In this document: positions 3,587 to 20,817 of the stretch, in pieces | Position numbering within the stretch: the stretch's first letter is position 1 | How the letters are laid out: each line of letters opens with the position of its first letter | Assembly: GCA_963771175.1 (NCBI GenBank) | Contig: CAVYSY010000046.1 | Coordinates: 128,001 to 192,000, forward strand | Reading direction: 5' to 3' | DNA: 64,000 bases | Source: an uncultured delta proteobacterium | GTDB taxonomy: Bacteria > Myxococcota > Myxococcia > Myxococcales > Myxococcaceae | Notes under the pieces: generated by a model | Told to the model about the DNA's origin: nothing | Seen by the model: only the letters and a program-made list of their open reading frames with translations | Databases searched by the model: none | Translations under genes and position numbers: made by a program

Positions 3587-4408
3587 GTGGCCTCCGACAA
3601 CACACAGCAGGCGGAACAGCCCAAGGCTCCGCACCCGGTCGTCCAGTCCATCGAGGGCATGGGCCGGGGCGTCATCGGCATGGTGTCGGAGCTGGGCGGC
3701 CTCGTCACGCTCGCCATCGATGTGGGGCGCTGGGGCGCGCGCCGGCCGTATCGCTGGCAGAACCTTTTCTTTCAGCTCGACTTCGTGGGGGTGGGCAGCG
3801 TCTTCATCGTCCTGCTCACCGGCCTCTTCACCGGCATGGTGTTCGCCCACCAGTCCTCGCGAGCCTTCGAGATGTTCGACGCGGAGAGCCTGGTGGGCCC
3901 CACCGTGGCCCTCACCCTCACGCGCGAGCTGGCCCCGGTCTTCTCCGCGCTGATGGTCACCATGCGCGCCGGCTCGGCCATGTGCACGGAGCTGGGCACC
4001 ATGCGCGTCTCCGAGCAGGTGGACGCCCTGGAGACCATGGCCGTCAACCCCATCCAGTACCTCCTGGTCCCCCGGGTGCTGGCTGGCCTCATCATGGTGC
4101 CGATCCTCACGCTGCTCTTCGACACCTCCGGCATCCTCGGCTCCTACTTCGTCTCGGTGTCGGTCAAGGGGCTGTCGGCCGGTACCTTCCTCGCGCGCAC
4201 GCGCCAGTGGTTGGACCCCGCGGACGTCTTCGAGGGACTCATCAAGGGCGCCGTCTTCGGGCTGGCCGTGGCCCTCATCTGCTGCTTCAAGGGCTTCAAC
4301 GCCTCGGGTGGCTCCAAGGGCGTGGGCAAGGCCACCACCGAGGCCATGGTGTCCAGCGCCCTCTCCATCTTCATCCTCGACTTCCTCGTCGGCGTCCTCC
4401 TGCACTGA
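3587..4408 (+). CDS. mlaE: MlaE family ABC transporter permease
   Basis: RELAPVFSALMVTMRAGSAMCTELGTMRVSEQVDALETMAVNP and GVGKATTEAMV motifs. Confidence 0.95.
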   Translation: MASDNTQQAEQPKAPHPVVQSIEGMGRGVIGMVSELGGLVTLAIDVGRWGARRPYRWQNLFFQLDFVGVGSVFIVLLTGLFTGMVFAHQSSRAFEMFDAESLVGPTVALTLTRELAPVFSALMVTMRAGSAMCTELGTMRVSEQVDALETMAVNPIQYLLVPRVLAGLIMVPILTLLFDTSGILGSYFVSVSVKGLSAGTFLARTRQWLDPADVFEGLIKGAVFGLAVALICCFKGFNASGGSKGVGKATTEAMVSSALSIFILDFLVGVLLH

Positions 4409-5173
4409 TGTCGGACATGAGCTCCAGGCCGATGATCGAGATCGTCGACCTGCACAAATCCTTCGGTGACTACACCGTCCTCAAGGGCATCGACCTCTCG
4501 GTGCCCGCGGGGAACACGTGCGTCATCCTCGGGGGCTCGGGCTCGGGCAAGACGGTGCTGATGAAGCACATGATCGGCCTGCTCAAGCCGGACAAGGGTC
4601 AGGTCATCATCGATGGGGAGGACGTCGTCCCCATGGGCCCCGAGGACCTGGAGCGGATGCGGCACAAGTTCGGCATGGTGTTCCAGGCCGCCGCGCTCTT
4701 CGACTCGATGGACCGTCTACGAGAACGTGGCCTTCCCGCTGCGCGAGCACAGCAAGCTGTCGGAGGAGGAGATCCAGAAGCTGGTTCGCTCGAAGCTGGA
4801 TCTCATGGGCCTGCCGCGCAGCGCGGAGAGGAAGTTCCCCGCGGACCTGTCCGGCGGCATGCGCAAGCGCGTGGGTCTGGCGCGTGCCATCGTGATGAAC
4901 CCGAAGATCGTCCTCTACGACGAGCCCACCACGGGCCTGGATCCCATCACCACGGACTACGTGGACGAGATGATCCTCGCGGCCCAGAAGGAATTGGGGA
5001 TCACCAGCGTGGTCATCAGCCACGACATCGCATCGGCCTTCAACGTCGCGGACCAGATCGCCTTCCTCAGCAAGGGCGTCATCCTGGAGCAGGGATCCCC
5101 GGAGCTGGTGCGCGCCTCGAAGCACCCGGCCGTGGAGGTCTTCATGCAGACCTGGTTCGGAAAGAACGATTAG
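4408..5173 (+). CDS. mlaF: MlaF family ABC ATP-binding protein (frameshift near 4711)
   Basis: Walker A GGSGSGKT in one frame; LSGGMRKR and LYDEPTTGLDP in the next; removing one G restores ALFDSMTVYENV. Confidence 0.9.
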
Positions 5174-5184
5174 GAGCACTCCCG

Positions 5185-6713
5185 GTGAAGAAGCTCGTCA
5201 CACCCTTCCGAGTAGGTCTGCTGGTGATCATCGCCGGAGGGTTCCTCTTTGGTTTCATCCTGTTCACCCGCAAGGGCGGGCTGAGCAAGGACGAGTCCAT
5301 CCAGGTGTACGCCTACTTCCGGGACGCCTCGGGCCTGGGGGCCAAGAGCCGGGTGCAGATCGCCGGCATCCCGGTGGGCGAGGTGGAGGGCGTCAAGCTG
5401 GAGGGCACGCGCGCCCAGGTGTCGCTGCGCATCCGCCGCGACGTGGATCTGCGCCAGGACGCCGGCCTCGTGAAGCGCTCGGAGTCCCTGCTGGGTGACT
5501 ACCTGTTGGATCTCAACCCGGGCTCCGAGCAGGCGCCCAACATGGAGGACGGCGGGGAGATCCGCCGGGTGGTGGACGTGCAGGGCATGGAGGCCGTCTT
5601 CGAGTCGCTCAGCCAGATCACCTCGGACATCCAGCAGGTGACGGCGGCGCTGCGCGACGTGCTCGGCGGGGACAAGGGCGCCGGCTCGCTGGAGCGGATC
5701 GTCGACAACCTCGTGCGGCTGTCGGACTCGATGGACATGACGGTGCGCATCACCGCCCAGCGCCTGGACGCCATCCTCCGCAACATCGAGGACGTGAGCG
5801 GCGACGTGCGGGGCATCACCGCCTCCAACGAGGACAGCATCGGCAACATCGTCCACAACATCGAGGCCATCACCCACGACACGCGCGACGTGCTCTCCTC
5901 GGTGCAGAAGGCCGTCGGCAGTGGGCAGGGGGGTGACCTGAAGGACACCGTGACCAGCCTCAAGCAGACGATGGCCCGGCTGGACAAGACGCTCTCCAAC
6001 CTGGAGCAGATCACCACCAAGGTGAACAACGGCGAGGGCGCCGTGGGCGCGCTGGTGGCCGATCGAGCGTCTGGGCCAGAAGATCTCCGAGTCCGTGGAG
6101 GACATGTCCGACTTCGCCTCCAAGCTCACCGGCATGGAGACCGAGGTGGGTCTGCAGGCCACCTACCTGGTCGGGCAGGGCAGCTCGAAGAACAGCCTGT
6201 CGCTGCGGCTGGCTCCCAAGCCGGACAAGTACTATCTGTTGGAGCTGGTGGATGATCCGCGCGGCATCACCGAGACGCAGCTCGTCCAGACCAACCCGCC
6301 CTCCTCGGGCGAGCCCGTCACCCAGCAGCAGAAGATCACCAAGGAAGGCTTCAAGTTCAGCGCCCAGTTCGCCAAGCGCTACTACTTCACCACCCTGCGC
6401 TTCGGCATCATCGAGTCCACGGGCGGCCTCGGCGCCGACTTCCACTTCTTCAAGGATCACCTGATGTTGAAGATGGACGCCTTCAACTTCTCGGTGGACG
6501 AGCTGCGCTACCCCCGGCATCCGCGCCTCGCTCCGGGCCCAGGCGTTCGACCAGCTGTTCGTCACCGCCGGCATGGACGACCTGCTGAACGACCAGCGGC
6601 GCGACCTCACCACCCGGAAGATGCTCGCCGGCCGCGACTTCTTCTTCGGTGGCGGCATCTACTTCACCGATGATGACCTCAAGGCCATCATGACGGCTGT
6701 GCCCACACCGTGA
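5185..6713 (+). CDS. mlaD: MlaD/MCE family protein with long helical and C-terminal beta region (frameshifts near 6063 and 6517)
   Basis: N-terminal TM, FRDASGLGAKSRVQIAGIPVGEV and SESLLGDYLLDLNPG MCE motifs; coding continues across two single-base insertions to TGA at 6711-6713. Confidence 0.85.
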
Positions 6714-6814
6714 TGGCTTGACCTGACCGACTGAAAAGTCGTACCTCGCCACGGCACGGGCGGTCCCCTGGGAGTCCCGTGCCTGCCTCACCGGCCTCTC
6801 TCCCTGGAACGCTC

Positions 6815-7740
6815 ATGTCTCTTCTCGTCGTTGGCTCGGTCGCGCTGGACTCGGTGGAAACCCCCTTCGGTCTGAAGGAGGACGTCCTTGGTGGCTCGGC
6901 CACCTTCTTCTCCACCTCCGCGTCCTTCTTCACCCCGGCCAAGGTGGTGGCGGTGGTGGGCGAGGACTTCCCCCAGGCCCACCTGGACTTCCTGCGCGGC
7001 CGCGGCGTGGACCTCGAGGGCGTCACCCGGGAGAAGGGCCGCACCTTCCGCTGGAAGGGCCGCTACGGCTGGCAGCTCAACGAGGCCGCAGACGCTCGAC
7101 ACCCAGCTCAACGTCTTCCAGTCCTTCTCGCCCAAGCTCCCCGAGAGCTACCGCGACGCCCAGTTCGTCTTCCTCGGCAACATCCACCCGGAGCTCCAGT
7201 GCCAGGTGCTGGATCAGGTGCAAGAGCCCCAAGCTGGTCGCCGCCGACACGATGAACTTCTGGATCAACGGCAGCCGGCAGGCGCTCCTCAAGACGCTCA
7301 AGCGCGTCGACCTGCTCTTCGTCAACGACGCCGAGGCCCGCCAGCTCTCCGGCGAGCACAACATCGTCAAGGCCGCCCGCGCCATCCTGGCCATGGGCCC
7401 CCAGCGCGTGGTCATCAAGCGCGGCGAGTACGGCGCGCTGCTCTTCGATCAGGAGCACATCTTCGCCTGCCCGGCCTTCCCGCTGGCGGACGTGTTCGAC
7501 CCGACCGGCGCCGGGGACACCTTCGCCGGCGGCTTCATGGGCACCCTGGCCCAGAATGGCCAGATCGACTCCCAGGTGCTGCGCCGCGCGATGGTGATGG
7601 GCAGCGTGATGGCCTCCTTCACCGTGGAGAAGTTCAGCCTCGAGCGCCTGCGCGAGGTGACCGTCAAGGACATCCACGCCCGGTTCTCTGAGTTCAAGCG
7701 ACTCACGCACTTCGAGGACCTCGGCTCGCTGGAGGGCTGA
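6815..7740 (+). CDS. PfkB family carbohydrate/nucleoside kinase (frameshifts near 7088 and 7222)
   Basis: VVGSVALD, LGGSATF at the N-terminus; DPTGAGDTFAGG PfkB signature. Confidence 0.9.
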
Positions 7741-7852
7741 GTCGGAGCCCGTGGAGGGGGGGGAGACCCCCTCTTGACGGATATTTCCAGTGTCCCTAAT
7801 CTCGGGTCCCGCGAATCCTGATTCCTGGGATGGTGTGGTGGGTGGTGGGAGA

Positions 7853-8239
7853 ATGCAAGCGCGCCACGGACCGCGCGCCGGAGGGCACGGGTTGCGGACG
7901 GAGAACCGAAAGCACGGACGAGTCCCCTCACGCCTGCGGGCCTGGTGCGAGTCGGACAACATCACGCTCTACGCGCGCATCGGCAACCTGAGCGAGGGCG
8001 GGCTGTTCCTGCAGACGAACACGCCGCTGGCCAAGGGACGCCGGACGCGGCTGCGGCTGAGCTGTGATGGGATGAAGGAGCTCATGGCCGAGGCCACGGT
8101 GGTATGGCAGCGGGAGCGGCGGGTGGAGACGGGCGCTCCGGGCATGGGCTTGAGGTTCGAGGGGTTGGATTCTGGTGCGCTGGCGCTCCTGCGGCGCATC
8201 ATCTCCGAAGAGCAGCGAATGGTGGCACTCGGTACCTAG
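7853..8239 (+). CDS. PilZ domain protein (myxobacterial TIGR02266-like)
   Basis: RKHGR (RxxxR) and NLSEGG ((D/N)xSxxG) motifs; GMGLRF. Confidence 0.9.
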   Translation: MQARHGPRAGGHGLRTENRKHGRVPSRLRAWCESDNITLYARIGNLSEGGLFLQTNTPLAKGRRTRLRLSCDGMKELMAEATVVWQRERRVETGAPGMGLRFEGLDSGALALLRRIISEEQRMVALGT

Positions 8240-8271
8240 CGGCCGGGCGGAGGGCCCGGTGAGAACTCCTC

Positions 8272-9003
8272 ATGCGCATCGCGATCATCTCCGACATCCA
8301 CTCCAACATCGAGGCACTGACGGAAGTGCTCCGGGTCGCGGAAGAGCAGAAGGTGGATCGCATCGTGTCGCTGGGGGACGTGGTGGGCTACGGGGCCTCG
8401 CCCAACGCCTGCTGTGACCTGGTGCGCTCGGTGACCGAGGTGACGCTGCTGGGCAACCACGACGCGGCGGTGGCCGGGCGGATGGACTACTCGTTCTACT
8501 ACGACGCCGCCCGCCACGCGCTCGACTGGTCCGCCGGAGTGCTCTCGGACGAGAACATGGACTGGCTGAAGAGCCTGCCCTACACGTACCGGATCGGGGA
8601 CGTGGGCTTCTGCCATGGCTCGCCGGTGGAGCCCAAGGCGTACGAGTACATCTTCGCGCTCGAGCAGGCCAAGGATCTGGCCCCGTACGTGGAGCACCTG
8701 CCGGAGGTGACGTTCATCGGGCACAGCCACCTGTGCAAGGCGTTCGCCATCGGCAACGGCGAGGTGCACGACGTGGTGGCCCAGAAGTTCGGCATCCGCC
8801 GGGGCTACAAGTACATCATCTCGGTGGGCAGCGTGGGGCAGCCGCGGGACTACGACAACCGGGCCTGCTTCGTGATCTGCGACACCGGGGCGCGCACGGT
8901 GGAGTACCTCCGGGTGGAGTACGACATCGAGACGGCCGCGCAGAAGATCTTCGACGCCGAGCTGGCGCTGAACTTCGGCAAGCGCTTGTTCCTCGGGGTG
9001 TGA
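8272..9003 (+). CDS. Calcineurin-like metallophosphoesterase
   Basis: SDIHSN, LGDVVGYG, GNHD, HGSP, GHSH, GSVGQPRD motifs. Confidence 0.95.
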   Translation: MRIAIISDIHSNIEALTEVLRVAEEQKVDRIVSLGDVVGYGASPNACCDLVRSVTEVTLLGNHDAAVAGRMDYSFYYDAARHALDWSAGVLSDENMDWLKSLPYTYRIGDVGFCHGSPVEPKAYEYIFALEQAKDLAPYVEHLPEVTFIGHSHLCKAFAIGNGEVHDVVAQKFGIRRGYKYIISVGSVGQPRDYDNRACFVICDTGARTVEYLRVEYDIETAAQKIFDAELALNFGKRLFLGV

Positions 9004-9060
9004 GCCCTCCCCCGCGAAAAAGGGGCGCGGCGGCCCGGAAGATGGCGTAGAAACCGGCCT

Positions 9061-9735
9061 GTGCGGACCTACAGCTTCCTTTCCGGTCGGATGTTCACCG
9101 GCCTCCTGATGGCCCTCCTCCTGGCGGCGGCACCCATCGCCTGCCGCAAGCCCGCGCAGCCCTCCGAGGAGTTCTCCCAGGCGCGCACGCGTTTCGGCAA
9201 GCTGTACGCGGAGAAGGGCGACGGCGCCTTCGTCGATCCGGAGATCGATCAGATCGACTCGATGCTGGCCCGGGTGCCCCCCAACAGCCTGGACGCGGCG
9301 GCGGCGAAGGAACTGCGCGCCCGGATCCAGGCCGGTCGGCAGGAGTCCCAGGCGCGTGCCAAGGCCCAGGAAGAGGCCCTGGCGAAGGCACGTGCGCCGA
9401 GCGAGATGCCTGCCGGTTTCAAGTCCGCCCCGACTCCCGCTCCCGCCCCCGAGAAGCCCCCGGAGCCTGTCGACGCTGGCACCCCCGCCGTGCCCCAGGT
9501 CGGCACCCCTGCCGCCGAGCTGGCGAGCGGCTTCTCTGGCTGCTTCCAGAAGGGGGAGCCCCTGGAGGTGCTCGGCCGCGGTCTCCGGGATCGCTGGGAA
9601 TTGCAGGACCGCGCGGCGTGTCGCCAGCAGTATGGCTCGCTCCAGGATCAGGTGTTGATCATCGAAGAGGGCAAGGTGATTGCCCTGGCTCCCAAGAGCG
9701 CGCTCAAGGAACTTCCCGCGGACGGCGGCCGCTGA
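9061..9735 (+). CDS. Hypothetical lipoprotein
   Basis: Hydrophobic leader ending APIAC; helical region, Pro-rich linker; lies in an apparent operon. Confidence 0.7.
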   Translation: MRTYSFLSGRMFTGLLMALLLAAAPIACRKPAQPSEEFSQARTRFGKLYAEKGDGAFVDPEIDQIDSMLARVPPNSLDAAAAKELRARIQAGRQESQARAKAQEEALAKARAPSEMPAGFKSAPTPAPAPEKPPEPVDAGTPAVPQVGTPAAELASGFSGCFQKGEPLEVLGRGLRDRWELQDRAACRQQYGSLQDQVLIIEEGKVIALAPKSALKELPADGGR

Positions 9736-9783
9736 CGCGCAGCCCGTCCCATCCACCCCTCATCCCAGAGCAGAACCGGTCTC

Positions 9784-10632
9784 ATGGACGAACAGACCTT
9801 CATGAAGCTGATGCAGATCCTCCCCAAGTCCGCGCTATCCACGGCGGTGGGGATGGCCACGCGCCTGCCCGTGCCGGCGCCACTGCACCGGGCGGCCATC
9901 AAGGCCTTCGCGAAGTCCTACAACGTGGACGTCGCCGAGGCCGAGCACACCCTCGAGCACTACCCGACCTTCGCGCAGTTCTTCACCCGCGGCCTCAAGG
10001 CGGGCCTGCGTCCCGTGGAGCCGGGTGAGAAGGTCGTCGTGTCCCCGGTGGACGGCGCGGTGTCCCAGGTGGGCTACTCCGAGCACGGCCGTGTCATGCA
10101 GGCCAAGGGCATCCACTACACCGTGGACGAGCTGCTCGGGGACCCCCAGGCCGCGAAGCCCTTCCACGGCGGCGCCTGGACCACCATCTACCTGTCGCCC
10201 CGCGACTACCACCGCATCCACTCGCCGCTCGGCGGGAAGATCACCGGGTACTCGTACATCCCCGGCGAGTTCTGGCCCGTGAACGTGGCCTCGGTGAAGT
10301 ACAAGCAGGCGCTCTTCTGCGTGAACGAGCGGCTCGTCACCTACCTCGGACACCGCTGGCCGGCCAGTGCGCCGTGGTGAAGGTGGGCGCCACGTGCGTG
10401 GCGCGCATCAAGGCCGCCTATGACGACGTCGCTCACGCACACGGGCAAGCCGGGCAAGGTGCACCGCTACGACTCCGCCATTCCGGTGGAGAAGGGCGGG
10501 GAGCTGGGCCGCTTCGAGATGGGCTCCACCGTCATCCTGCTCTTCGAGCCGGGTCGCGTGCGCTGGGACGAGAGCCTCGCAGCCGGAGGCCGGTGGTGCG
10601 CATGGGCCGGCGCATCGGAGAGGTCGTCGTGA
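9784..10632 (+). CDS. psd: Phosphatidylserine decarboxylase proenzyme (frameshifted in the 3' third)
   Basis: [35 protein letters not shown], and GRFEMGSTV self-cleavage motif spread over several frames. Confidence 0.92.
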
Positions 10633-11926
10633 GTCAGAAGGTCAGTGGCGTCAAGGGGATGAACGACCTCCTCCCCGGTGAGGTCGAGGTGTGGCAGCAC
10701 CGTCGAGCGCACCGCCCGCGAGCTGTTCGGGCGCTTCGGCTACGGCGAGGTGCGCACCCCCATGGTCGAGGACACCGCGCTCTTCGTGCGCAGCGTGGGC
10801 GAGGAGACCGACATCGTCGGCAAGGAGATGTACACCTTCGAGGACAAGGGCGGCCGCAGCCTCGTCCCTGCGCCCCGAGGGCACCGCGCCGGCGGCGCGC
10901 GCGTACATCGAGCACTCCGTCGTCAACCAGGAGCCGCTCACGCGCTGGTTCTACATGGGCCCGATGTTCCGCTACGAGCGCATGAAGACGGGCGCTACCG
11001 CCAGTTCCACCAGATCGGCGCCGAGGCCTACGGCGCGCAGGAGCCCGCCGCAGGACGTCGAGGTGATGGACATGGTGGTGCAGTTCCTCGAGGCGCTGGG
11101 GCTCACCGACGTCTCGCTCAACCTCAACTCGCTCGGGGACGAGGCGTGCCGGCCCGTCTACCAGGCGAAGCTGGTGGAGCACCTGCGCGCCCACCGCGAG
11201 CGAGCTGTGCGCCGACTGCCAGGAGCGGCTGGATGCGCAACCCGCTGCGGGTGCTCGACTGCAAGAACCGAGCGCTGCCAGGAGATCGCCAGCGCCGCGC
11301 CCAACATCCTCGAGTTCCTGTGCGAGCCGTGCCGCGCGCACTTCGCCGAGGTGCAGCGCAAGCTGGACGCGCTCGGCATCCGGTACGTCGTCAACCCGCG
11401 CATCGTGCGCGGGCTCGACTACTACACGCGCACCACGTTCGAGTTCATCGCCTCGCACCCCGCGCTGGGCACCGCCAGCACCGTGGGCGGCGGCGGGCGC
11501 TATGACAAGCTGGTGAAGAGCCTGGGCGGGCCGGACGTGCCCGCGGTGGGCTTCGGCCTCGGGTTGGATCGGCTCTGCCTGCTGCTCAAGGAGAGCGGCC
11601 AGCAGTTCTCCCAGCCGGCGGACCTCTTCGTCGCCGTGGCGGACGAGGGCTCGGCGGATGCCGCCTTCGTGCTCGCCAGCACGCTGCGCCGCGAGGGCCT
11701 GCGCGTGGAGTTCGACACGCGCGGCGGCAGCCTCAAGAGCCAGATGAAGCGCGCCGACAAGGTGGGGGCCCGCTACACGCTGGTGCTCGGCCAGAACGAG
11801 CGCGAGAGCGGCAAGGCCCAGCTCAAGCCCATGGCGGGCGGAGAGCCCCTCGCCGTGGAGCTCGCCCACGTGGCCCGCACCTTGCGTGAAGCACTCTCCC
11901 GGTCCTCGACTCCCTCGGCCTCCTGA
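10629..11926 (+). CDS. hisS: Histidine--tRNA ligase (multiple apparent frameshifts)
   Basis: [61 protein letters not shown] and the anticodon-binding domain [11 protein letters not shown]. Confidence 0.95.
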
Positions 11927-12039
11927 GCCGCGGGGAAGGGTGGATAGCCGGTAAAGCCCGCCAGACCCCTGACAATCCAAGGGGTTGGGCGGGCGGCGAT
12001 TTGGGGGTGTCGCCGAGGTGACGTTACAATCGTGCTCCA

Positions 12040-12447
12040 GTGATGCCACAGGACTGGACGCACGCGGAGCGAGAGGGCCCGTGCTGGATTCCCATCCGGG
12101 GAGACAGCATGTGGCCCTCTTTGCGTTCGGGCGACGTGGCGCGCGTGGAGCCGCTGACGGAGTCTCCTCGGCCCGGCGAGGTGGTGGTCGCGCGCTTCGA
12201 CCATGCGCTGGTGGTGCACCGCGTGCGCCGCTGTGACGCGGACGCGTGCGTGCTGCGCGGGGACAACGTGCCGGCGGAGGATCCGCCCCTGCCTCGCGCG
12301 CGGCTGCTGGGGCGGGTGCGCTTCGTGCGTCGTGGGGGCGAGGTGCTCGCGCCGGCCCGGTGGGATCGGGGGCCCCTGCGTTGGGGCCGCTGGCGCGTGG
12401 TGGTGAAGCGCGGGCTGGCGGCGCTGCTCGGGCGGAGGCGCGCATGA
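12040..12447 (+). CDS. S24/S26 family peptidase (Ser-His type), no membrane anchor
   Basis: IRGDSMWPSL (catalytic Ser box), VVHRV, LRGDN; 135 aa without a hydrophobic TM segment. Confidence 0.88.
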   Translation: MMPQDWTHAEREGPCWIPIRGDSMWPSLRSGDVARVEPLTESPRPGEVVVARFDHALVVHRVRRCDADACVLRGDNVPAEDPPLPRARLLGRVRFVRRGGEVLAPARWDRGPLRWGRWRVVVKRGLAALLGRRRA

Positions 12448-12731
12448 GCTTCCGAGCGGACAGCATCCCCCATCGGCGCGAGGGCGCGGACGGTCAGCGC
12501 TTCGGCGAGGACTTCGTGGTGTTGGATCCGGAAGGTCACATGCTTCGGGGTCTCAACGAGACGGCCGCGCGGGTCTGGGAGCTGGTCGACGGCCGGCGCA
12601 CCGCGCGCGACATCGCCGGAGTGGTGGCGAGCGAGTACGGCGTGGAAGTGGAGCGGGTGCTCGGGGACTGCCTGTCCTTCCTCGCGCGACTCGTGGGACA
12701 TGGGCTGTTGGACGCGGAGGTGCATCGATGA
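12444..12731 (+). CDS. PqqD family RiPP recognition element (RRE)
   Basis: 95 aa; EDFVVLDP..LNETAARVWELVDGRRTARDIA..VASEYGVE..DCLSFLARL..GLL matches the PqqD consensus; ATGA overlaps at both ends. Confidence 0.92.
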   Translation: MSFRADSIPHRREGADGQRFGEDFVVLDPEGHMLRGLNETAARVWELVDGRRTARDIAGVVASEYGVEVERVLGDCLSFLARLVGHGLLDAEVHR

Positions 12732-13186
12732 GAGTGCTCGGGATGGCGTCTGTGCTCCTGCTGCTGGCCGCGTGCGACCAAGGCAGCGTCCCGAATCCTC
12801 CCGACTGGGGGTCGTGGAATGGCATCACTCCGCCGGTGCGGCCCACGCCGCCGCTGCCTCCGCTGGTGGGCGTGGCGGAGGTCGCCTACGTGCCCGAGGG
12901 CGCGCGCGGTCTGTCCGAGGTGACGTCGGTGGAGGTGCGGCTGCGCGTGAGTGGCATCGTCAACTCGGCGTCGGTGGACGCGGAGTTCCTCGCTCCCGGC
13001 CCCGCGGTGTACGAGCGGCGCACCCGCACGGTCGAGGCCCTCCCCACGGAGCAGCGTGAGCTCGTCTTCAGCCTGCCGGTGGCCGCCACCCAAATCCCCA
13101 TCCATGGCCTGAGTGGCTCCTGGGAGGTGCGCTTCTTCGTCGATGGCGCGCCCCTGACCACCACCGCCTTCACCCTGGAGCGCTGA
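12728..13186 (+). CDS. Lipoprotein with a single Ig-like beta-sandwich
   Basis: LLLLAAC lipobox; Pro-rich tether; GSWEVRFFVDG...AFTL terminal strands. Confidence 0.8.
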   Translation: MRVLGMASVLLLLAACDQGSVPNPPDWGSWNGITPPVRPTPPLPPLVGVAEVAYVPEGARGLSEVTSVEVRLRVSGIVNSASVDAEFLAPGPAVYERRTRTVEALPTEQRELVFSLPVAATQIPIHGLSGSWEVRFFVDGAPLTTTAFTLER

Positions 13187-13190
13187 CGCC

Positions 13191-16100
13191 ATGATCGCCC
13201 GACTGCTCGCGCTCCTGTTCCTGCTGCTGCCCGCCGCCGCGCTGGCCCAGAACGCGTGGACCGTCACGCCCGTCGACGGCTCCGCGGTGATGGGGGAGAT
13301 CTCCTCGCTCGTCTTCGAGGTGCGCAACGCCTCCACCAGCACCCGACCGATCAACGAGATCAGCCTCGCGGTGGATGGCACCGCCTATGACGTCGACGGT
13401 GGGGATGCTCCGGTGGGCTGGACGGTGAGCACCATTGATCGCAAGGAGCGCCGCATCACCTATTCGGCGAGTGGCTCCTGCGCTCCGGGGCCGTTGGGGA
13501 TCGCGCCGGGAGCCTCCGTGCGCTTCACGCTGCGGCTCGTGGGCCTCGCCGCCAACGCCGATGTCAACGACGCGCTGCTGGCCGGCAATGCCAGCAAGAA
13601 GGCGAGCGAGGCGCGCGACACCTGCTCCGGCACCACGTTCTCCGGAGACCCGACGCTGGCGCGCTGGAAGCGGGTGGGCCTGTCCGCGAGCCTCTCGGTG
13701 CTGCCGCGCACCCTCCAGCTCGGGGGCAACGTCACCGTGCAGCTCGTCGTGGTGAACCGCTCGCTGGTGAACCAGAGCGGCATCTCCCTGAGCGGCCCCG
13801 TGGTGGTGGGGAGCGCCACCTTCGACAAGACGGTGGTGAGCTTCTCGCCGGCCACGCTCTCGCTCGCGCCCGGGGCCACCGGGGCCTTCACCGGCAAGCT
13901 CCAGGCCACGGGGGAGGGGACCGCCTTCCTCCAGGCCTCGGCGGCCAACGCCGCGGTGAGCACCGCGCAGACCTCCTCGCTCCATGTGAACGTGAGCAGC
14001 TTCCCGGCGCTCATCGAGGCGCTGCCCTCCAGCATCGCCCCCGGCGATACGGTGACGGTCCGCCTCGTGGTGTCCAACCCCTCCAAGAGCACCTACCGGG
14101 ACGTCGTCCCCCGTGCTCTTGGATTCGTGGGAACGGCGACGCCCTCGATCCTGAGCGGCCCCACTCCCGCGAGCGCCACGTCGCTCAGCCCGGGCGCGTC
14201 CATCTCCTTCGTCTGGAAGTACCGCGTGGACGGGCCCATTGGCGCCACCTTCGCGTTCCAGGGCCAGGCGGATGCCACGCGCGACGGCGTGCCCCTCTCC
14301 ACGGGCCCGGTGGTCTCCTCTCAAGGGCGCATCGTGGAGCACCGGCTGGCCATCGAGCCCGCCTCCCTCATCTCCGGCGCGAGGAACAAGACGCTCCGCT
14401 ACACCCTCTACAATGGCGGCACGGTGGAGATCCGCTCCGTGAAGCTGCTCGTGCCGGACACGACCTTCTTCACCGTGTCGGGCACGCCCTTCGCCAACGA
14501 CTCCAGCGGGTGGAACACCAGCCCCAACAAGGGCTACACGTGGACGGCCCCCACTGGTGCGCCCGGCATCACTCCGGGCTCGCAGAAGACCTTCGCCATC
14601 GACTACGCCGCCATTGGCACCGTCGCCAGCGACACGGCCTTCAGCCACCAGTTGGAGCTGACGCAGGTGAGCGGCTCCACCACCAACGCCCTCCGCGTGG
14701 ATGCTCCGGTCACCGTCTTCGTCAACCGCGTGCTGCCCGAGGTCGAGTCCCTCGTGGCGCTCGCCGGGCCCCAGCGCAACACGCTCCTGTGGACCAACCC
14801 AGCCGATCATGACGGTGTGCTCGTGCTGCGCTCCGTGGGCTCCGCCCCCAGCACCGCTCCCGAGCCGGGTCGCCGCTATGTCTTGGGCGAGACGCTCGGC
14901 AACGCCACGGTGGTGTACTCGGACGAGCTGAGTGTGGCCTCCTCCTTCGCCGACACCGGGCTCACCGATGGCACCCCCTACGTCTACCGGGTCTACAACC
15001 ACGACGCGCTGTACCGGTACTCGCCGGGCAACGCGCCGCAGTCGCTCGGGTTGAAGTCGACTCCCACGGGCCGCGGGCCCGGCCAGCCGCTGTGGTGCTA
15101 CAGCGTCGGCTTCTCCTCGCTCCAGCAGCCCATCACCGAGCCGGGTCCCACCGGGGGCATCTTCACCTCCAACTCCTCGGGCCGCGTGACGGCCAGCCTG
15201 ACGAACACGTCCTCGCCCGAGCTCGACGGCAACGAGCGCTGGCGCCCGGTGCAGCTCCAGGGCGCCGTGCAGAGCCGCTTCCCGCTCGTCCCGCTGCACG
15301 GTCTTCCCGGGCAGTACATCCTCACCGGCGATCAGGCGGGCTACCCCTACGCCATCCGCGCCGAGACCGGAGAGCTCCTCTGGCGCGGCGCCTCGCTCGG
15401 CATCATCCAGTCCTTCCCCGTGGTGCAGCTCCACGACTACGCCGGCACCGCATACAAGGCGGCTCACCCCAATCGCGATCTGGCCTTCTTCGCCACCCGG
15501 TTGAGCACCGGCACCGACAACAAGGTGGTGGCGCTCGATGCCGCCACCGGCGTGCCCGTGTGGACGTACGCCCCGGGCGACCTCGGCATGGTGAGCGGGG
15601 GCATGTTGATCGACTACACGTACAACCGACTGTTCGTGGGCGCTCGCTCCAACGGAGGCTCCCTGGCCTCGCTGCGCGTCCTCGATAGCCTCACCGGCAC
15701 CGAGCTGGCCCGGCTGTCCCTTGGGGATATCGACTTCGGCCTCGTCCGCTATGGCTCGGCGCTCCTGGCGCTCGTGACGAACAGCGACGGCACCGTGTAC
15801 GGCGTCGACATGGCGAAGCTGACCGTGGCCTGGAGCGCGGCGGTGGCCACCCGCCCGTCGGCCTCGGTGCCCGCGTTCTCCCAATATGCCCGGCCGGTGA
15901 CGAGTGGCTTCGTCGTGAGCATCCTGGGCGCCACCGACGCGGAGGGCAGGGTGGAACGCTGGAACCTCACCACCACCTCCACGGGCACCACGGTGACGCG
16001 GACCTGGTCCACCCCCATCCCGAGCCCCTCCGGCTCCTTCTCGGCCACCCTGGGGGGCGTGCAGCGCCTCTATGTCGGCGGCAAGGACGAGAAGGTGCAC

Positions 16101-16253
16101 GAGCTGGAGATGGCCACCGGCGTGGATGGCAGGCAGATCTCCCTCCCTGGCGCTCTGGCCATCGGCACTCCGACAGTGGACACCTCCGTGTCGCGCCTCC
16201 ACGTGGGCACCCAGGATGGCCGCGTCTGTGCCTTCCAGGTGCCCTTCCCCTGA
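13191..16253 (+). CDS. Large secreted protein: tandem Ig-like/FN3-like domains plus C-terminal PQQ-like beta-propeller
   Basis: Sec signal ending ALA-Q; Ser/Thr-rich beta domains; FADTGLTDGTPYVYRVY (FN3-like); propeller repeats AIRAETGELLW, ALDAATGVPVW, VLDSLTGTEL, LHVGTQDGRVCAF. Confidence 0.85.
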   Translation: MIARLLALLFLLLPAAALAQNAWTVTPVDGSAVMGEISSLVFEVRNASTSTRPINEISLAVDGTAYDVDGGDAPVGWTVSTIDRKERRITYSASGSCAPGPLGIAPGASVRFTLRLVGLAANADVNDALLAGNASKKASEARDTCSGTTFSGDPTLARWKRVGLSASLSVLPRTLQLGGNVTVQLVVVNRSLVNQSGISLSGPVVVGSATFDKTVVSFSPATLSLAPGATGAFTGKLQATGEGTAFLQASAANAAVSTAQTSSLHVNVSSFPALIEALPSSIAPGDTVTVRLVVSNPSKSTYRDVVPRALGFVGTATPSILSGPTPASATSLSPGASISFVWKYRVDGPIGATFAFQGQADATRDGVPLSTGPVVSSQGRIVEHRLAIEPASLISGARNKTLRYTLYNGGTVEIRSVKLLVPDTTFFTVSGTPFANDSSGWNTSPNKGYTWTAPTGAPGITPGSQKTFAIDYAAIGTVASDTAFSHQLELTQVSGSTTNALRVDAPVTVFVNRVLPEVESLVALAGPQRNTLLWTNPADHDGVLVLRSVGSAPSTAPEPGRRYVLGETLGNATVVYSDELSVASSFADTGLTDGTPYVYRVYNHDALYRYSPGNAPQSLGLKSTPTGRGPGQPLWCYSVGFSSLQQPITEPGPTGGIFTSNSSGRVTASLTNTSSPELDGNERWRPVQLQGAVQSRFPLVPLHGLPGQYILTGDQAGYPYAIRAETGELLWRGASLGIIQSFPVVQLHDYAGTAYKAAHPNRDLAFFATRLSTGTDNKVVALDAATGVPVWTYAPGDLGMVSGGMLIDYTYNRLFVGARSNGGSLASLRVLDSLTGTELARLSLGDIDFGLVRYGSALLALVTNSDGTVYGVDMAKLTVAWSAAVATRPSASVPAFSQYARPVTSGFVVSILGATDAEGRVERWNLTTTSTGTTVTRTWSTPIPSPSGSFSATLGGVQRLYVGGKDEKVHELEMATGVDGRQISLPGALAIGTPTVDTSVSRLHVGTQDGRVCAFQVPFP

Positions 16254-16260
16254 GCCCTCG

Positions 16261-16443
16261 ATGACGCGCGATCCCCAGCCACCTCCCGAGGGAGCTCCGC
16301 CCGCGCCGGCCGTGGCCTCGCGTGCGCGCGTCTACGAGCCCCCCGCGGTGCTCTGGGAACAGCCCTTCGTCGCGCTCGCGCAGGTGTCCTTCAACGGCGA
16401 CTACGGCTGCGAGATCCCCGGCTCGTGCGAGGATATTCCGTGA
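16261..16443 (+). CDS. Putative RiPP precursor peptide (60 aa)
   Basis: MTRDPQPPPEGAPPAPAVASRARVYEPPAVLWEQPFVALAQVSFNGDYGCEIPGSCEDIP; fills the gap between flanking genes; YxxP motif; GC-ending codons. Confidence 0.75.
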   Translation: MTRDPQPPPEGAPPAPAVASRARVYEPPAVLWEQPFVALAQVSFNGDYGCEIPGSCEDIP

Positions 16444-16459
16444 GGAGGAGCCGCCGCCC

Positions 16460-17254
16460 GTGGTGACGCTGTCGCTGGCGGGCTGGACGGTGTCCCTGGA
16501 GTCCGAGGACACGGCGCTGGAGGAGCTGCTCGTCCGGGCGTGCCTCGCGTTCCGCACCTCCGAGCCGGCTCGGGCGCACGTCCGGGTGCTGCGTCCGGCG
16601 GTCTCCCGTCCGAGTCCCGCCGTGCGCTCCCTGCCGGAGATCCGCCCCGTCCCTGGTGGCGGTCAGCGGGTGGAGGGGGAGGACTACGTCGCGGACATCG
16701 CTCCCGAGGGCCGGAGCGCCACCGTGACGGGCGAGGGCCGCTTCCCCGTGGACACGGTGTTGAAGGTGATGCTCGCGGGCGAGCTGGCGAGGCGCGGGGG
16801 CCTGCTGGTGCACGGGGTGGCGGTGGAGCACCTCGGACGCGCTGCTCTGTGGACGGGCCCGTCCGGGGCGGGGAAGAGCACCCTGGCCGGGCTGTGGGCG
16901 AGGTCTGGCGGCACGGTGCTGACCGATGAGCTGGTGGCGGTGTGGCCCGAGGCGGGAGGCTGGCGCGCCGCCGGGACGCCGTGGAACGTGGGCATGCCTC
17001 GCGAGGCCTCGCTGCGCGCGGTGGGCCTCCTGGGCTGGGACTCGGGTTCGCGCTGGGAGCCCGTGGGGGCGGGGGAGGTGGCCCGGGTGCTGCTGCTCAA
17101 CGCGCTCCTGCCCGAGTCCTCCGCCGCCGGACGCCGCCATTTGATGGCTACGGCGGGCCGCCTGCTGGCGGAGGTGGAGACGGCCCGGCTCGTCTTCGCG
17201 CGAGATGCCTCCGCGGCGGACGTGGTGCGCGCGGGGCTGGAGCGCGGCTTCTAA
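16460..17254 (+). CDS. HPr kinase-related P-loop protein
   Basis: GGAGGAG RBS before GTG; LLVHGVAV...GPSGAGKSTLA...LTDE...GTPW, the His / Walker A / acidic pair layout of HprK-like kinases. Confidence 0.85.
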   Translation: MVTLSLAGWTVSLESEDTALEELLVRACLAFRTSEPARAHVRVLRPAVSRPSPAVRSLPEIRPVPGGGQRVEGEDYVADIAPEGRSATVTGEGRFPVDTVLKVMLAGELARRGGLLVHGVAVEHLGRAALWTGPSGAGKSTLAGLWARSGGTVLTDELVAVWPEAGGWRAAGTPWNVGMPREASLRAVGLLGWDSGSRWEPVGAGEVARVLLLNALLPESSAAGRRHLMATAGRLLAEVETARLVFARDASAADVVRAGLERGF

Positions 17255-17512: not shown

Positions 17513-18415
17513 ATGAAGCCCTTCCTCACCGTTATCGCTGGACCCACCGCGTCCGGAAAGACCGCGATCGCCATCGAGCTTGCCCGCCGGCAGGGTGGGG
17601 AGATCGTCAGCGCGGACTCGCAGCAGGTGTATCGGTATTTCGACATCGGCACGGCGAAGCCCTCGGCGGAGGAGCTGGCCGCCGTGCCGCACCACCTCAT
17701 CTCCGTGGTGGACCCACTCGAGCCCTTCTCCGCCGCCGAGTACCAGCGTCGGGCTGACGCGGCCATCGAGGAGATCACCTCGCGGGGGAAGCCCGTCTTC
17801 GTGGTGGGCGGGACGGGGATGTACCTCCGCATCCTGCTACACGGCCTGGTGGAGGCGCCGGGGGCGGATCCCGAGCTGCGCGCCGAGCTGGAGGCGCTTG
17901 CCGCCGCCGAGGGCCGCGAGGCCGTGCACCGCAAGCTCGCCGAGGTGGATCCGGAGACCGCCGCGAAGCTTCCGTCCCAGGATCTGGTGCGCACCATCCG
18001 GGCGCTGGAGATCCACAAGCAGACGGGGAAGCCCGCCTCCGAGTTCCGCCGGGAGCACTCCTTCACCGAGGACCGCTATCCCTTCCGGATGTACGTGCTC
18101 TCGCCGCCGCGCGAGGTGCTGTACGGCACCATCGACACGCGCACGGCGGCCATGTTCCAGCGCGGGCTGGTGGACGAGGTACGGGAGCTGATCGCCCGGG
18201 GCTACGCGGAGGCGGCGCCCATGCGCAGCGTGGGCTACGTGCAGGCGAAGGCGGTGGTGGACGGGCGGCTCCCGGTGGAGGAGGCGATCCAGCAGGCGGC
18301 ACAGGAGACGCGCCGCTACGCCAAGCGGCAGCTCACGTGGTTCCGCAAGGAGGCGGGGGCCGTCTTCGTGGAGCCCCCATATGACACGCTGCTGAAGGGC
18401 ACCGGGCCCGGGTGA
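17513..18415 (+). CDS. miaA: tRNA dimethylallyltransferase
   Basis: GPTASGKT, SADSQQVY, DIGTAKP, VGGTGMY, RRYAKRQLTWF. Confidence 0.97.
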   Translation: MKPFLTVIAGPTASGKTAIAIELARRQGGEIVSADSQQVYRYFDIGTAKPSAEELAAVPHHLISVVDPLEPFSAAEYQRRADAAIEEITSRGKPVFVVGGTGMYLRILLHGLVEAPGADPELRAELEALAAAEGREAVHRKLAEVDPETAAKLPSQDLVRTIRALEIHKQTGKPASEFRREHSFTEDRYPFRMYVLSPPREVLYGTIDTRTAAMFQRGLVDEVRELIARGYAEAAPMRSVGYVQAKAVVDGRLPVEEAIQQAAQETRRYAKRQLTWFRKEAGAVFVEPPYDTLLKGTGPG

Positions 18416-18431
18416 GGGCAGGAACGGGCGA

Positions 18432-18800
18432 CTACCGCTCGGGGAGGGACTTGAGCACGAACACGTTGCCTTCCGAGTGGAAGACCACGGACCCATGGGC
18501 CACAAGGCCCTCGGGCGTGCTCACGCGGCTGGAGGCATCCTGCCGGACGTCCTGCTCCATGTCGGAGGGGAACTCGATGGTGCTCGCCAGGACCGCGTCG
18601 CCCGGGGAGAGAGGCGAGATGGTGAAGACCGGGCAGGGGGCTCGAACGCACCGGACGCCGCTGTCGGTGAGCCGGTACAGGTCGGGCGCGGCGATGACTT
18701 CACCTTCCGCGTACTCGATATCGTCAGCGTCCCCGGGGAAGAGGGGAGTGCCACACGCTGCTGCTCCGAACATCAGGGACGCGAGGATGTACTTTCTCAT
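18432..18800 (-). CDS. Small lipoprotein with CxxAPCP motif
   Basis: MRKYILASLMFGAAAC lipobox; DSGVRCVRAPCP. Confidence 0.65.
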   Translation of the reverse strand: MRKYILASLMFGAAACGTPLFPGDADDIEYAEGEVIAAPDLYRLTDSGVRCVRAPCPVFTISPLSPGDAVLASTIEFPSDMEQDVRQDASSRVSTPEGLVAHGSVVFHSEGNVFVLKSLPER

Positions 18801-19086
18801 GGTGAACGAACCGGAGCTGCAAGGGGTATTCCTCCACCAGCGCTCGGAGTTTCGCGGGTTTGTGCGAGGTGAGGTCCTCAAAAATCCGAGATCCCATGAC
18901 AGCGGGGGACCAGCATGAGCGGCTCCAAAGGGAAGGTCGTCCTCATCCGCGGAGCTGCAGAGCGCCCGAGGCCACACCGCCTACGGCACGAGCCGCAAGT
19001 CGGCTCCCGCGCCGACGGGCCACCGGATGTTGGAGATGGATGTGACCCGGGACGACTCGGTCATGTCCTACTACGGCCTGTAGGCG

Positions 19087-20817
19087 TCAGGACGCGTAGC
19101 GTCCCGTCTCGTCGGAGACTCCGCTCTCGGAGGCGGTCCGGTGCTGCGAGGCTGACAGGCTGTCCGGGACCAGTCCCATGAGCTGACGCAGGAGTTGCTC
19201 GGGCTCCACGGGCTTGGGCAGGAAGGCCTCGGCGCCCGCGTCGAGCGCGCGCTGGCGGACGTGCGGCCGGTTCAACCCGCTCATCACCACCACCCGTGTG
19301 TCGCGCGTGAGCGGGTGCTGCTTGAGGCCTTCGCACAGCCTCAGCCCGTCCACCCAGTGCAGCACCACGTCCAGGAGGATGGCGGTGGGGGGCCGACGCG
19401 CCACCGCGCAGAACAGCGCCAGCTCGTCCGCGAAGGCCACGACCCGGGCGCCCGTGGACTCCAGGAGCTGCGTCATCGCCTCGCGCTGATCCGGGTCATC
19501 GTCCACGATGTAGTAGAGGTCCGGCTCCAGCGTGGGGATCGTCGTGGGCAGCGGCTCCACCGTCGTCCGCACCCAGGAGGCCATGGTCTCGCGGATGCCC
19601 GCCCACCGGGCCGCGCCCAGCAGGGCGAGCGGGGTGGGCGTAATGAGTCCCAGCACGCCGCCGCCCATGCCGCCCATGGACCCGTGGTTGCGCGCCGTCA
19701 CGAAGGCCTGGGGCGCCCGCCGTCCGGCCCGGCGCAGCCAGGAGATGGAGCGAGCCCCCGCCGCCGAGTCCTCGAGCAGCTCGGAGAGGCCCTCGCGCAC
19801 GTAGCGGCGCTCCAGGGCCGGGGCCTCCAGGCCCGCGTCCAGCAGGGCCACCGCCGCGCGGCTGCACGAGGCCAGCGTCTCGGAGAGCCCGAGCTGCAGC
19901 GGGTGGCCGAACGCCGCCGCGCCCACCGTGAGCTGTCCGGGAGCCACGAGCGTGCGGCCGGGGCCGTAGGGCAGCCGCGTCGTCTCCAGGGCGGCCAGCT
20001 CGAAACCTTCCTCCACCAGCCCGTCGCGGGCGGCCATCATCAGGGCCTGGCACAGGTCCGCCGGAGTCACCGCGGCCCCGAAGGCGAGCGCGTACACCGA
20101 GTGCGCACCGGGGATCAGCAGCAACCCGTCCACCGAGGGCATGGGAGCGATCCACAGCCGCGCGAGTGGCGCCAGGGAGAGCCGGGAGGTCGCGTGCCGC
20201 AGCCGGGCCTGCACCGCGGCGATGGTGGGCGCGGGGCTGAAGCGAGGGAAGAACGCATCACCCAGCGAGGGCCCGGAGCCCGTGGCCAACGCGACCGCGT
20301 GGAAGCGCTCGCCGCTGCCCTGGGCCCGCACCACGAGCGGACCGCTCTTGCGCACCGTGGCCGGAGCATCCGGAGCTGGCGGCTGGTTCTCCACCCGCTC
20401 CACGCGACGGGGCACGAAGCGCGCGCCCTGGGACGAGGCCGCGCCCGCGAGCACCTCGCGCACCAGCGCCAGCCCCCCCTGTCCCTGCGGCCACCCGTCC
20501 ACCACCCACAGGCCCCCCGGCGCCGCCGGCAGCACCTCGCGGTTGCCCTCGGAGAGGATCTCCACCCCGCGCAGCTCGTGCGCCCGCCACTCGGGAGGCA
20601 CCCGGCAGCCGAGCGCGGCCAGTCGCGAGCGACACTCGGGCGTGAGGATGGCGGGGGGGGCGATGGTGCCCGGCTCGCCGCTCTCGTACACCCGCACGTC
20701 CAGCGCACTGCCTCGGGCCCGGCCATTGAAGAGCAGCGAGGCGGCGAGCCCCGCTCCGGCGATCCCGCCCCCGATGATGGCCACCCTCGAACCGTTCGCC
20801 AGCCTGCTGCCTTTCAT
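19087..20817 (-). CDS. FAD-binding (Rossmann) oxidoreductase-like domain fused to a C-terminal response-regulator receiver
   Basis: VAIIGGGIAG...VRVYE dinucleotide-binding start; ALATG; C-terminal IVDDD, ILLDVVL, MSG, FLPKP. Confidence 0.85.
   Translation of the reverse strand: MKGSRLANGSRVAIIGGGIAGAGLAASLLFNGRARGSALDVRVYESGEPGTIAPPAILTPECRSRLAALGCRVPPEWRAHELRGVEILSEGNREVLPAAPGGLWVVDGWPQGQGGLALVREVLAGAASSQGARFVPRRVERVENQPPAPDAPATVRKSGPLVVRAQGSGERFHAVALATGSGPSLGDAFFPRFSPAPTIAAVQARLRHATSRLSLAPLARLWIAPMPSVDGLLLIPGAHSVYALAFGAAVTPADLCQALMMAARDGLVEEGFELAALETTRLPYGPGRTLVAPGQLTVGAAAFGHPLQLGLSETLASCSRAAVALLDAGLEAPALERRYVREGLSELLEDSAAGARSISWLRRAGRRAPQAFVTARNHGSMGGMGGGVLGLITPTPLALLGAARWAGIRETMASWVRTTVEPLPTTIPTLEPDLYYIVDDDPDQREAMTQLLESTGARVVAFADELALFCAVARRPPTAILLDVVLHWVDGLRLCEGLKQHPLTRDTRVVVMSGLNRPHVRQRALDAGAEAFLPKPVEPEQLLRQLMGLVPDSLSASQHRTASESGVSDETGRYAS

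Follow-up and report, generated by a model that had tools for sequence, protein, structure and literature searches.

The DNA considered here (the window, a stretch of 64,000 nucleotides with a GC content of about 70%, from an uncultured member of the Myxococcaceae) contains, directly ahead of a gene for a putative kinase, a short open reading frame (ORF) whose product has the appearance of a leader followed by a small core with two cysteines. The locus raises two questions, namely, whether this frame is a gene and, if so, which pathway would turn its product into a mature peptide. In what follows, residues are numbered from the start of the ORF or, with a sign, from the predicted junction between the leader (−1) and the core (+1); G000 is the genome of the window and C46 is its contig.

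Conservation of the Reading Frame

Direct translation of positions 16261–16443 (plus strand) gives a peptide of 60 amino acids, MTRDPQPPPEGAPPAPAVASRARVYEPPAVLWEQPFVALAQVSFNGDYGCEIPGSCEDIP, followed by a stop codon. It contains all the strings quoted in the original prediction (a Pro/Ala-rich start, RVYEPPAVLWE, and FVALA) together with the C-x5-C pair described there, which is C50 and C56, and, within the last 20 residues, the two serines (S43 and S55) and one tyrosine (Y48). The frame is also hidden, as was pointed out, in the tail of a longer one, since the mechanical ORF list shows only a frame of 123 aa at 16072–16443, which overlaps the 3′ end of the 13191–16253 gene in a different frame. 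Pfam and NCBIfam searches of the 60-residue peptide gave no match.

Long chance ORFs are plentiful in high-GC genomes, and no clear Shine–Dalgarno site precedes the ATG at 16261; both facts would fit a chance open frame in an intergenic stretch of 72% GC, with conservation acting at the DNA level. The comparative data contradict this explanation. The GC3 signal is specific to the frame and shifts from that of the upstream 1020-aa gene to that of the peptide (0.93–0.97 at 16300–16360) and then to that of the kinase. The lack of a conserved ORF at orthologous loci had been named beforehand as part of what would speak against a gene; full-length, stop-free orthologues were found in 14 of 41 related genomes, the source genome included, with an identity of 62–100% (62–88% in the 13 other genomes). 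The carriers are the source genome, 12 of the 17 other members of its genus, and one genome of another genus. The orthologues are 60–66 aa long and differ in length by whole codons only, and none of the 14 contains a stop.

The pN/pS ratio is 0.83 in the N-terminal 24 residues and 0.43 in the remainder of the peptide, and in the 19 codons from Y−16 to S+3 it falls to 0.14 (13 loci) and 0.23 (35 loci); these last counts used 35 of the 36 loci offered and, among the 14 loci at genus level, left out L013, where W-A replaces W-E and the search pattern therefore did not match. In the same block, 32 distinct DNA versions encode 14 peptide versions. Divergent members with an identity of 41–43% retain the protein motif, and 59 small proteins of the family were called independently in public data. 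Most loci begin with ATG, and 3 of 14 begin with TTG; because the N-terminal 24 residues are weakly constrained, the exact start is less certain than the rest of the ORF.

Overall, the comparative data already refute a spurious ORF, the probability of which we consider vanishingly small, and, as judged from the aligned sequences, 16261–16443 is a real, conserved gene under purifying selection with a predicted product of 60 residues.

Distribution of the Peptide Family

A profile of 13 sequences detected the family in 85 of 401 Myxococcota genomes and, in the same search, in 79 of the 171 genomes of the Myxococcaceae, the family of the window. In two large genera, the peptide was present in every genome sampled (21/21 and 32/32), and the named records that carry it belong to Archangium, Vitiosangium, Citreicoccus, Pyxidicoccus, Corallococcus, and Myxococcus, including M. 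xanthus. Public collections contain 34 clusters of close relatives, described, where they are named, as “hypothetical protein” of Archangium. Among 1.84 billion representatives searched, there were 61 matches at E ≤ 0.001, of which 59 are peptides of 42–83 residues; the other two, P0041 (403 aa) and P0076 (274 aa), are unrelated tandem-repeat proteins that matched via short repeated motifs and were excluded. Two of ten clusters looked up bear an organism name, and both are MAGs of the Myxococcaceae. The peptide gene is thus under-annotated: public records that call it at all use “hypothetical protein”. A search of PDB chains with the family profile gave no match at E up to 10.

Leader, Core, and Predicted Cleavage Site

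The conserved leader block is Y25(−16)-E-P-P(−13)-A-V-L(−10)-W-E-Q(−7)-P-F-V-A-L-A40(−1). In the LPP peptides of Bacillota, the leader consensus printed in the part of Popov et al. (Nat Commun 2026, PMC13381572) used here, on which our comparison of registers rests, is YxxPxVLxHQxIxFETxxS, with Y at −16, P at −13, and L at −10. When YEPPAVLWEQPFVALAQVS is set against it, six of the ten specified positions carry the same residue in register, namely, Y, P, V, L, Q, and S. Because the leader matches this consensus in register, cleavage after A-L-A would leave a core that begins with QVS and has a near-invariant Ser at position 3. Just before the cut, positions −3 to −1 read A-L-A and not F-E-T, so the cleavage site is predicted from the register together with the habit of signal peptidases of cutting after AxA.

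The original prediction had expected a conserved YxxP..W..F.ALA leader and a variable core at orthologous loci. Among 111 distinct leader-plus-core sequences, we found F−5 in 107, A−3 in 105, L−2 in 100, and A−1 in 102, and cores that differ in sequence and in length (9–28 aa), which agrees with this expectation; the search pattern behind these counts fixed Y/W/C at −16, P/A at −13, W−9, and E−8, so these four columns are not evidence of conservation. Core position 3 is Ser in 104 of the 111 sequences and Thr in five more, and S43 (Ser+3) and C50 are invariant in 23 aligned sequences. In the window, the codon of Ser+3 lies at 16387–16389 and the Cys codons at 16408–16410 and 16426–16428. The predicted core is 20 residues long here and 15 in Myxococcus, where it is of the QISQCNIPGESECIP type; the Archangium-type core has an acidic residue at D7, and the first acidic residue of the Myxococcus-type core is E10.

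The two-Cys core was likewise borne out across the family, since exactly two Cys are retained in 100 of the 111 cores; the number of Cys is even in 109. Four Cys occur in seven cores and six in two, which indicates that the scaffold also supports multi-disulfide cores. Metagenomic members with six Cys in the core are P0052 and P0073, with sequences such as that ending in ASNPCTTCSYCYSNPGTCTTGCFGCR.

Gene Order and Co-Inheritance

On the plus strand, the genes follow one another in the order hisS, S24/S26 peptidase, PqqD-family RRE, lipoprotein, 1020-aa secreted protein, peptide, HprK-like protein, and miaA (Table 1). Stop and start codons mostly overlap along this series; for example, the ATGA start of the RRE gene overlaps the stop of the peptidase gene. 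The 152-aa lipoprotein has no Pfam or NCBIfam match, and a homologue of it stands at the equivalent position in all 22 loci examined. The 1020-aa protein (GC3 of its gene 0.93), also present in 22/22 loci, matches PF13360 at residues 679–794 (2.5e-8); in the ESM Atlas, its best score, 0.79, which is a lead only, is to fn3/PQQ-propeller surface proteins.

Table 1. Positions of the features described, in the window and in the paralogous module L085 (G000:C32:574000-592000)
Feature	Positions	Strand	Length	Basis or description
S24/S26 (signal-peptidase-I-like) serine peptidase, no membrane segment, candidate leader peptidase	12043–12447	+		PF00717 Peptidase_S24, 5.5e-11
Discrete PqqD-family RRE	12444–12731	+	95 aa	PF05402, 9.5e-17, above the 23.4-bit cut-off
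Lipoprotein, predicted	12728–13186	+	152 aa	Signal peptide ending LLAAC
Secreted protein	13191–16253	+	1020 aa	Signal-like N-terminus MIARLLALLFLLLPAAALAQ; C-terminal PQQ_2/BamB-like beta-propeller
Leader, residues 1–40	16261–16380	+	40 residues	Variable Pro/Ala-rich N-terminus, then conserved block
Predicted core QVSFNGDYGCEIPGSCEDIP and stop	16381–16443	+		Leader register, family conservation
Shine–Dalgarno-like site AGGAGGAG for kinase gene	16443–16450	+		9 nt before GTG 16460
HprK-like P-loop kinase	16460–17254	+	264 aa	Weak family matches and predicted fold
L085: PqqD	12282–12596	−
L085: Ig-like protein	8650–12285	−	1211 aa
L085: FG-GAP protein	6350–8290	−	646 aa
L085: short ORF	6198–6338	−	46 aa
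L085: kinase paralogue	5415–6188	−
L085: S24-like::GNAT fusion	4499–5452	−
L085: EamA	3549–4646	−

In 22 loci from several genera, the RRE, the lipoprotein, the large protein, and the kinase were each found in all 22 and the S24 peptidase in 20. The peptide was detected by tblastn in 21 of them; in the last one, G021, a divergent copy containing YEAPVILWEHEFTALAACSPPC stands directly 5′ of a kinase with 43% identity. The orthologues of the peptide and of the kinase occur in exactly the same 14 of 41 genomes, and in the five genus members that do not have the peptide, the kinase is represented only by a paralogue with 32–38% identity. The genes for the peptide, the PqqD-type RRE, the signal-peptidase-like protease of the S24/S26 type, and the HprK-fold kinase are inherited together as a single operon.

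The surroundings of the operon gave several further observations. Two minus-strand ORFs, 10634–12466 and 12536–13381, were considered as genes and dropped; the genome-wide PqqD search and GC3 show that the coding strand is plus. When compared with a Myxococcus-type HisRS, hisS (10629–11890, plus strand) lies in three frames (residues 1–24, 25 to about 72, and 73–418), with apparent frame changes near 10701 and 10847; in a draft that is 82% complete, an error in sequencing or assembly is a more likely cause of these changes than disruption of an essential gene. Downstream of miaA, at 18412–19181 of the window (plus strand), there are two ORFs of 168 aa and 88 aa with no Pfam or NCBIfam match.

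In a genome of another genus, G023, the peptidase, RRE, kinase, and miaA form a cluster that has neither the lipoprotein nor the large propeller protein; its precursor, ending in YQPPAIAWETEFVAFAQTSLDPCQTIPPPDFCTGG, stands beside uvrB on a different contig from its enzymes (loci L015, G023:C31, and L035, G023:C56). The genome of the window also contains a second, paralogous module, L085, with the same layout on the minus strand. The peptide of this module, MRSETQQPAPKKPYRPPRVRSERILVPDLFAPTNCDPFYDPRPECQ (46 aa), combines a YxPPxV motif with two Cys and lacks both the W-E..F.ALA block and a Ser at the equivalent position, and the kinase paralogue of the module (33% identity) was found in all 17 other genomes of the genus. 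The recurrence of an RRE, large secreted repeat proteins, a two-Cys peptide, a kinase, and an S24 peptidase in this second module could, on a more speculative reading, point to a wider link between such peptides and surface proteins.

The Putative Processing Proteins

The best NCBIfam matches of the peptidase are TIGR02754, the NiSOD maturation protease (1.7e-7), and TIGR02228, the archaeal-type signal peptidase I (6.5e-7), both below their curated cut-offs. The motifs GDSMWPSLR, LVxHR, and GDN are invariant across 14 orthologues, as are S22, H59, and D74; H59 aligns with Lys156 of LexA, the catalytic Lys, and a His at this position is a hallmark of archaeal/ER-type signal peptidases. The predicted model of the peptidase (pLDDT 76.8) matches SipA, LexA, and human SEC11A/C.

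With respect to the RRE, the supposition that the YxxP motif is an RRE-binding element of the leader gains from the presence of a PqqD-type RRE gene in the same operon. In profile searches, this protein is about equally close to the lasso B1 protein TbiB1 (5v1u, 3.7e-7), to LppB (9x8z_B, 5.9e-7), and to PqqD (3g2b, 8.3e-7). Its residues N38 and D75 are invariant in 18/18 orthologues and correspond, in the alignment with chain 9x8z_B, to N51 and D88. According to the part of Popov et al. used here (PMC13381572), N33 and D70 of LppB hold P−13 and Y−16 of the leader. The pairs N38/D75 and N33/D70 share a spacing of 37 residues, and equating N51/D88 of the deposited chain with N33/D70 of LppB assumes a tag offset of 18 residues.

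A complex prediction for the RRE and peptide residues 18–60 gave a score of 0.49 versus 0.01 for the best of three controls, with a contact agreement between runs of at least 93% and a partner pLDDT of at least 54. Of 157 solved complexes, 116 reach the mark applied, as do 2 of 215 mismatched pairs, and the score obtained here falls in the range up to 0.60, which holds only 18 of the 157 solved complexes and both of the passing mismatches. It should also be noted that RRE–leader complexes have already been solved, so the pass may reflect likeness only. In this sense, the modelled complex weakly supports the pairing of the RRE with the peptide.

The family matches of the kinase are TIGR04352 HprK_rel_A (1.1e-5), TIGR04355 (2.6e-4), ScmC (1.6e-3), and hpr-ser (8.7e-3), all of them below curated cut-offs and confined to the P-loop region. 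The best PDB match to HprK/P has an E of 0.038, with HGVxV...GPSGAGKST aligned with the P-loop of HprK/P (GxSGxGKS), and the predicted model (pLDDT 90) matches PEP carboxykinases and HPr kinase/phosphorylases. The core serines and tyrosine had been put forward as phospho-acceptors for the adjacent kinase. The neighbour with an HprK/PEPCK-type P-loop fold fits this proposal, with the refinement that the likely acceptor is Ser+3 (104/111), and not the Tyr or the second Ser.

A YxxPxL-type leader and a discrete PqqD-type RRE with a lasso protein, TbiB1, as its best PDB match are also what would be expected of a lasso-peptide precursor, in which a B1-type RRE binds the YxxP leader, a B2 protease cuts it, and an Asn-synthetase-like enzyme closes the core into a ring; the portion of PMC13381572 consulted adds that HprK-like kinases are known as tailoring enzymes in paeninodin-type lasso clusters. 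However, none of the seven PF00733 matches in the genome is on C46, and in the whole genome no B2-type protease attains the PF13471 cut-off (the best, 22.7 bits, is on C30, and a match of 13 bits on C46, at 105 kb, has an internal stop). A contig with neither cyclase nor B2 protease argues that the product is not a lasso peptide. In addition, Leu stands at −2, where Thr is described as conserved in lasso leaders in the passages of PMC10368454 drawn on here, and there is no Asp/Glu at a constant core position in the range 7–9 (D7 in Archangium, E10 in the Myxococcus type). The lasso reading is thus already largely refuted, and we regard it as highly improbable.

Elsewhere in the genome, a strong Asn_synthase match (1e-77) at G000:C33:552814-553953 lies about 9 kb from a weak Transglut_core3 match at C33:562124-562279, and two NTP_transf_5 genes stand side by side at G000:C57:30717-34007. 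The C33 and C57 loci may be true lasso-type or related clusters.

Proposed Pathway and Its Alternatives

Taken together, the ORF probably encodes a precursor from which an LPP-like pathway would make a ribosomally synthesised and post-translationally modified peptide, the modification being proposed by analogy. The pathway could proceed in four steps. By analogy with LppB of Paenibacillus, the RRE would bind the leader via Y−16 and P−13, using the invariant Asn38 and Asp75. By analogy with LppK, the kinase would then phosphorylate Ser+3 of the core, possibly several times. With the A-L-A|Q site presented by the RRE, the Ser/His peptidase of the cytoplasm, by analogy with LppS, would remove the leader of 40 residues. 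The acidic peptide of 20 residues (15 in Myxococcus) would be released, and its two Cys could close a disulfide loop outside the cytoplasm.

The peptide could instead be a genuine small protein that is never cleaved, for instance, a full-length substrate or regulator of the HprK-like kinase in the style of HPr and HprK, with the PqqD protein merely as a scaffold. Its C-terminal part is highly conserved throughout a bacterial family, the operon is inherited syntenically between hisS and miaA, and neither an exporter nor a further tailoring enzyme was found. Against this alternative stand the dedicated S24/S26 peptidase, whose gene shows translational coupling with that of the RRE in 20 of 22 loci, and the conserved AxA-type site exactly at the leader cut position given for LPP in the sections of PMC13381572 used; moreover, the N-terminal third is nearly unconstrained (see the ratio for the first 24 residues above), as a disposable leader extension would be. 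We therefore regard an uncleaved protein as distinctly unlikely.

Another fate of the phosphate would be that of a leaving group, so that elimination to dehydroalanine and attack by a Cys would close a lanthionine-type thioether ring of the kind found in class III–V lanthipeptides. A conserved Ser+3 and a conserved Cys do occur in a short core beside a kinase, and no function is assigned to the 152-aa protein or to the first 600 residues of the 1020-aa protein. However, both of these proteins carry export signals, lyase/cyclase families were not detected in the operon, and the even Cys counts in 109/111 cores fit disulfide pairs better than a single Ser–Cys bridge. In LPP, the phosphates remain on Ser, as far as the account in PMC13381572 used here goes. 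A thioether ring is accordingly very unlikely.

Several points count against the LPP-like reading itself, among them the equal closeness of the RRE to lasso B1 proteins and to PqqD, the A-L-A residues at the predicted cut, and the lack of an NTP_transf_5 or ABC_membrane match on the contig. The kinase resembles HprK families weakly (E 1e-5 to 1e-2, below cut-offs). The core is short and strongly conserved and the operon stands among housekeeping genes, unlike the variable, patchy LPP clusters. In G023, the peptide is unlinked to its enzymes.

As to the role of an LPP-like product, the co-encoded lipoprotein and secreted beta-propeller protein suggest that it acts in the cell envelope. A more specific version is that the Myxococcaceae have a vertically inherited phosphopeptide, conserved family-wide, with pSer3 and a disulfide loop that contains Pro. 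A reduced LPP-like set of RRE, kinase, and signal-peptidase-like protease would make it, and the lipoprotein and the propeller protein would use it in the envelope as a ligand, cofactor, or signal; it would not be a warfare molecule. This version is speculative and, in our estimate, rather unlikely; if it is true, a conserved envelope phosphopeptide would be the first biological role for the LPP class, and it can be tested in Myxococcus xanthus. That species, one of the named carriers, is amenable to genetics. Mass spectrometry should find a short, conserved core with two Cys much more readily than the core of 45 residues in Paenibacillus, and the fixed genomic context with two extracytoplasmic partner proteins allows concrete hypotheses on function. 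The LPP class was described only in 2026, and a myxobacterial relative would extend it to Gram-negative social bacteria.

Comparison with Known Systems

The maturation of NiSOD has a likeness in the peptidase, whose best NCBIfam match is TIGR02754 (below the cut-off, as given above). SodX is a cytoplasmic S26-type protease that trims a short N-terminal leader from the Cys-containing N-terminus of SodN. The locus differs in that there is no SodN-like His-Cys-x-x-Pro-Cys hook here, and NiSOD maturation is not known to involve an RRE or a kinase.

SynChlorMet (Scm) and other radical-SAM cassettes (TIGR04248/TIGR04249) also combine PqqD-like and HprK-like proteins with a small Cys-bearing precursor, and weak Scm matches were obtained here (ScmD, 9.4e-4; ScmC, 1.6e-3; both below cut-offs). 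In contrast to these cassettes, no radical-SAM/SPASM gene accompanies the operon; on its contig, the closest PF04055 match (C46:254928-255429) stands about 110 kb from it.

The paeninodin-type phosphorylated lasso peptides, as described in the parts of PMC13381572 and PMC8498205 used here, are similar in having a [Y/W]xxP leader bound by a discrete RRE and an HprK-like kinase that acts on a Ser of the precursor. They differ in that the locus here lacks a macrolactam synthetase and a B2 cysteine protease, its leader does not have Thr at −2, and its protease is a serine peptidase of clan S24/S26.

The LPP system of Bacillota, according to the portions of Popov et al. on which we draw (Nat Commun 2026, PMC13381572), comprises a precursor (LppA), an RRE (LppB), an HprK-like kinase (LppK), an SpI-like leader peptidase (LppS), an NTP-transferase (LppN), and an exporter (LppD). 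In these portions, LppK adds several phosphates to Ser3 of the core, and LppS (S29/H68/D93) cuts the leader after T−1 only when LppB presents the precursor. The core has a long, highly variable C-terminus (45 residues for the whole core in the Paenibacillus case studied), and the systems, termed “restricted to the Bacillota”, have a patchy, transfer-driven distribution in capsule loci.

The differences from LPP are several. The host phylum is Myxococcota instead of Bacillota; positions −3 to −1 are A, L, and A (in 105, 100, and 102 of 111 sequences) instead of F, E, and T; the core has 9–28 residues and, in 100/111 cases, two Cys, whereas the C-terminus of LPP is long and variable; a lipoprotein and a secreted beta-propeller protein of about 1000 aa are inserted between the RRE and the precursor; and the operon is syntenic between hisS and miaA across genera, whereas LPP clusters are patchy and lie in capsule loci. 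No NTP-transferase corresponding to LppN was found among the ORFs scanned at 4.5–30 kb, and PF14907 matches occur only on contigs C57, C32, and C40. Similarly, the contig of the window has no PF00664 match, and no MsbA-like exporter corresponding to LppD is apparent; the sole nearby ABC_tran match is a 199-aa ORF at 4574–5173, with housekeeping genes between it and the operon. A literature search returned no description of the myxobacterial system; the supplements of PMC13381572, with their SSN and taxon tables, lie outside its scope and could list members from outside the Bacillota.

The likenesses concern the central steps. Three of the five core enzyme types are present here, namely, the PqqD RRE, the HprK-like kinase, and the signal-peptidase-like Ser/His leader peptidase, and neither system has a cyclase. 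The kinase is HprK-like by its P-loop block and predicted fold and is set against LppK by description. The peptidase, likewise set against LppS by the description in the sections of PMC13381572 consulted, has a His in place of the Lys of LexA, as the Ser-His-Asp enzyme LppS does. The RRE keeps the Asn and Asp that, in the LppB–LppA structure as presented there, fix the Pro and Tyr of the leader, and the precursors share Y−16, P−13, V−11, L−10, Q−7, and a Ser at core position 3 in a common register. As far as the sequences allow a comparison, the system thus resembles LPP rather than lasso systems and appears to be a recognisable LPP relative in the Myxococcota.
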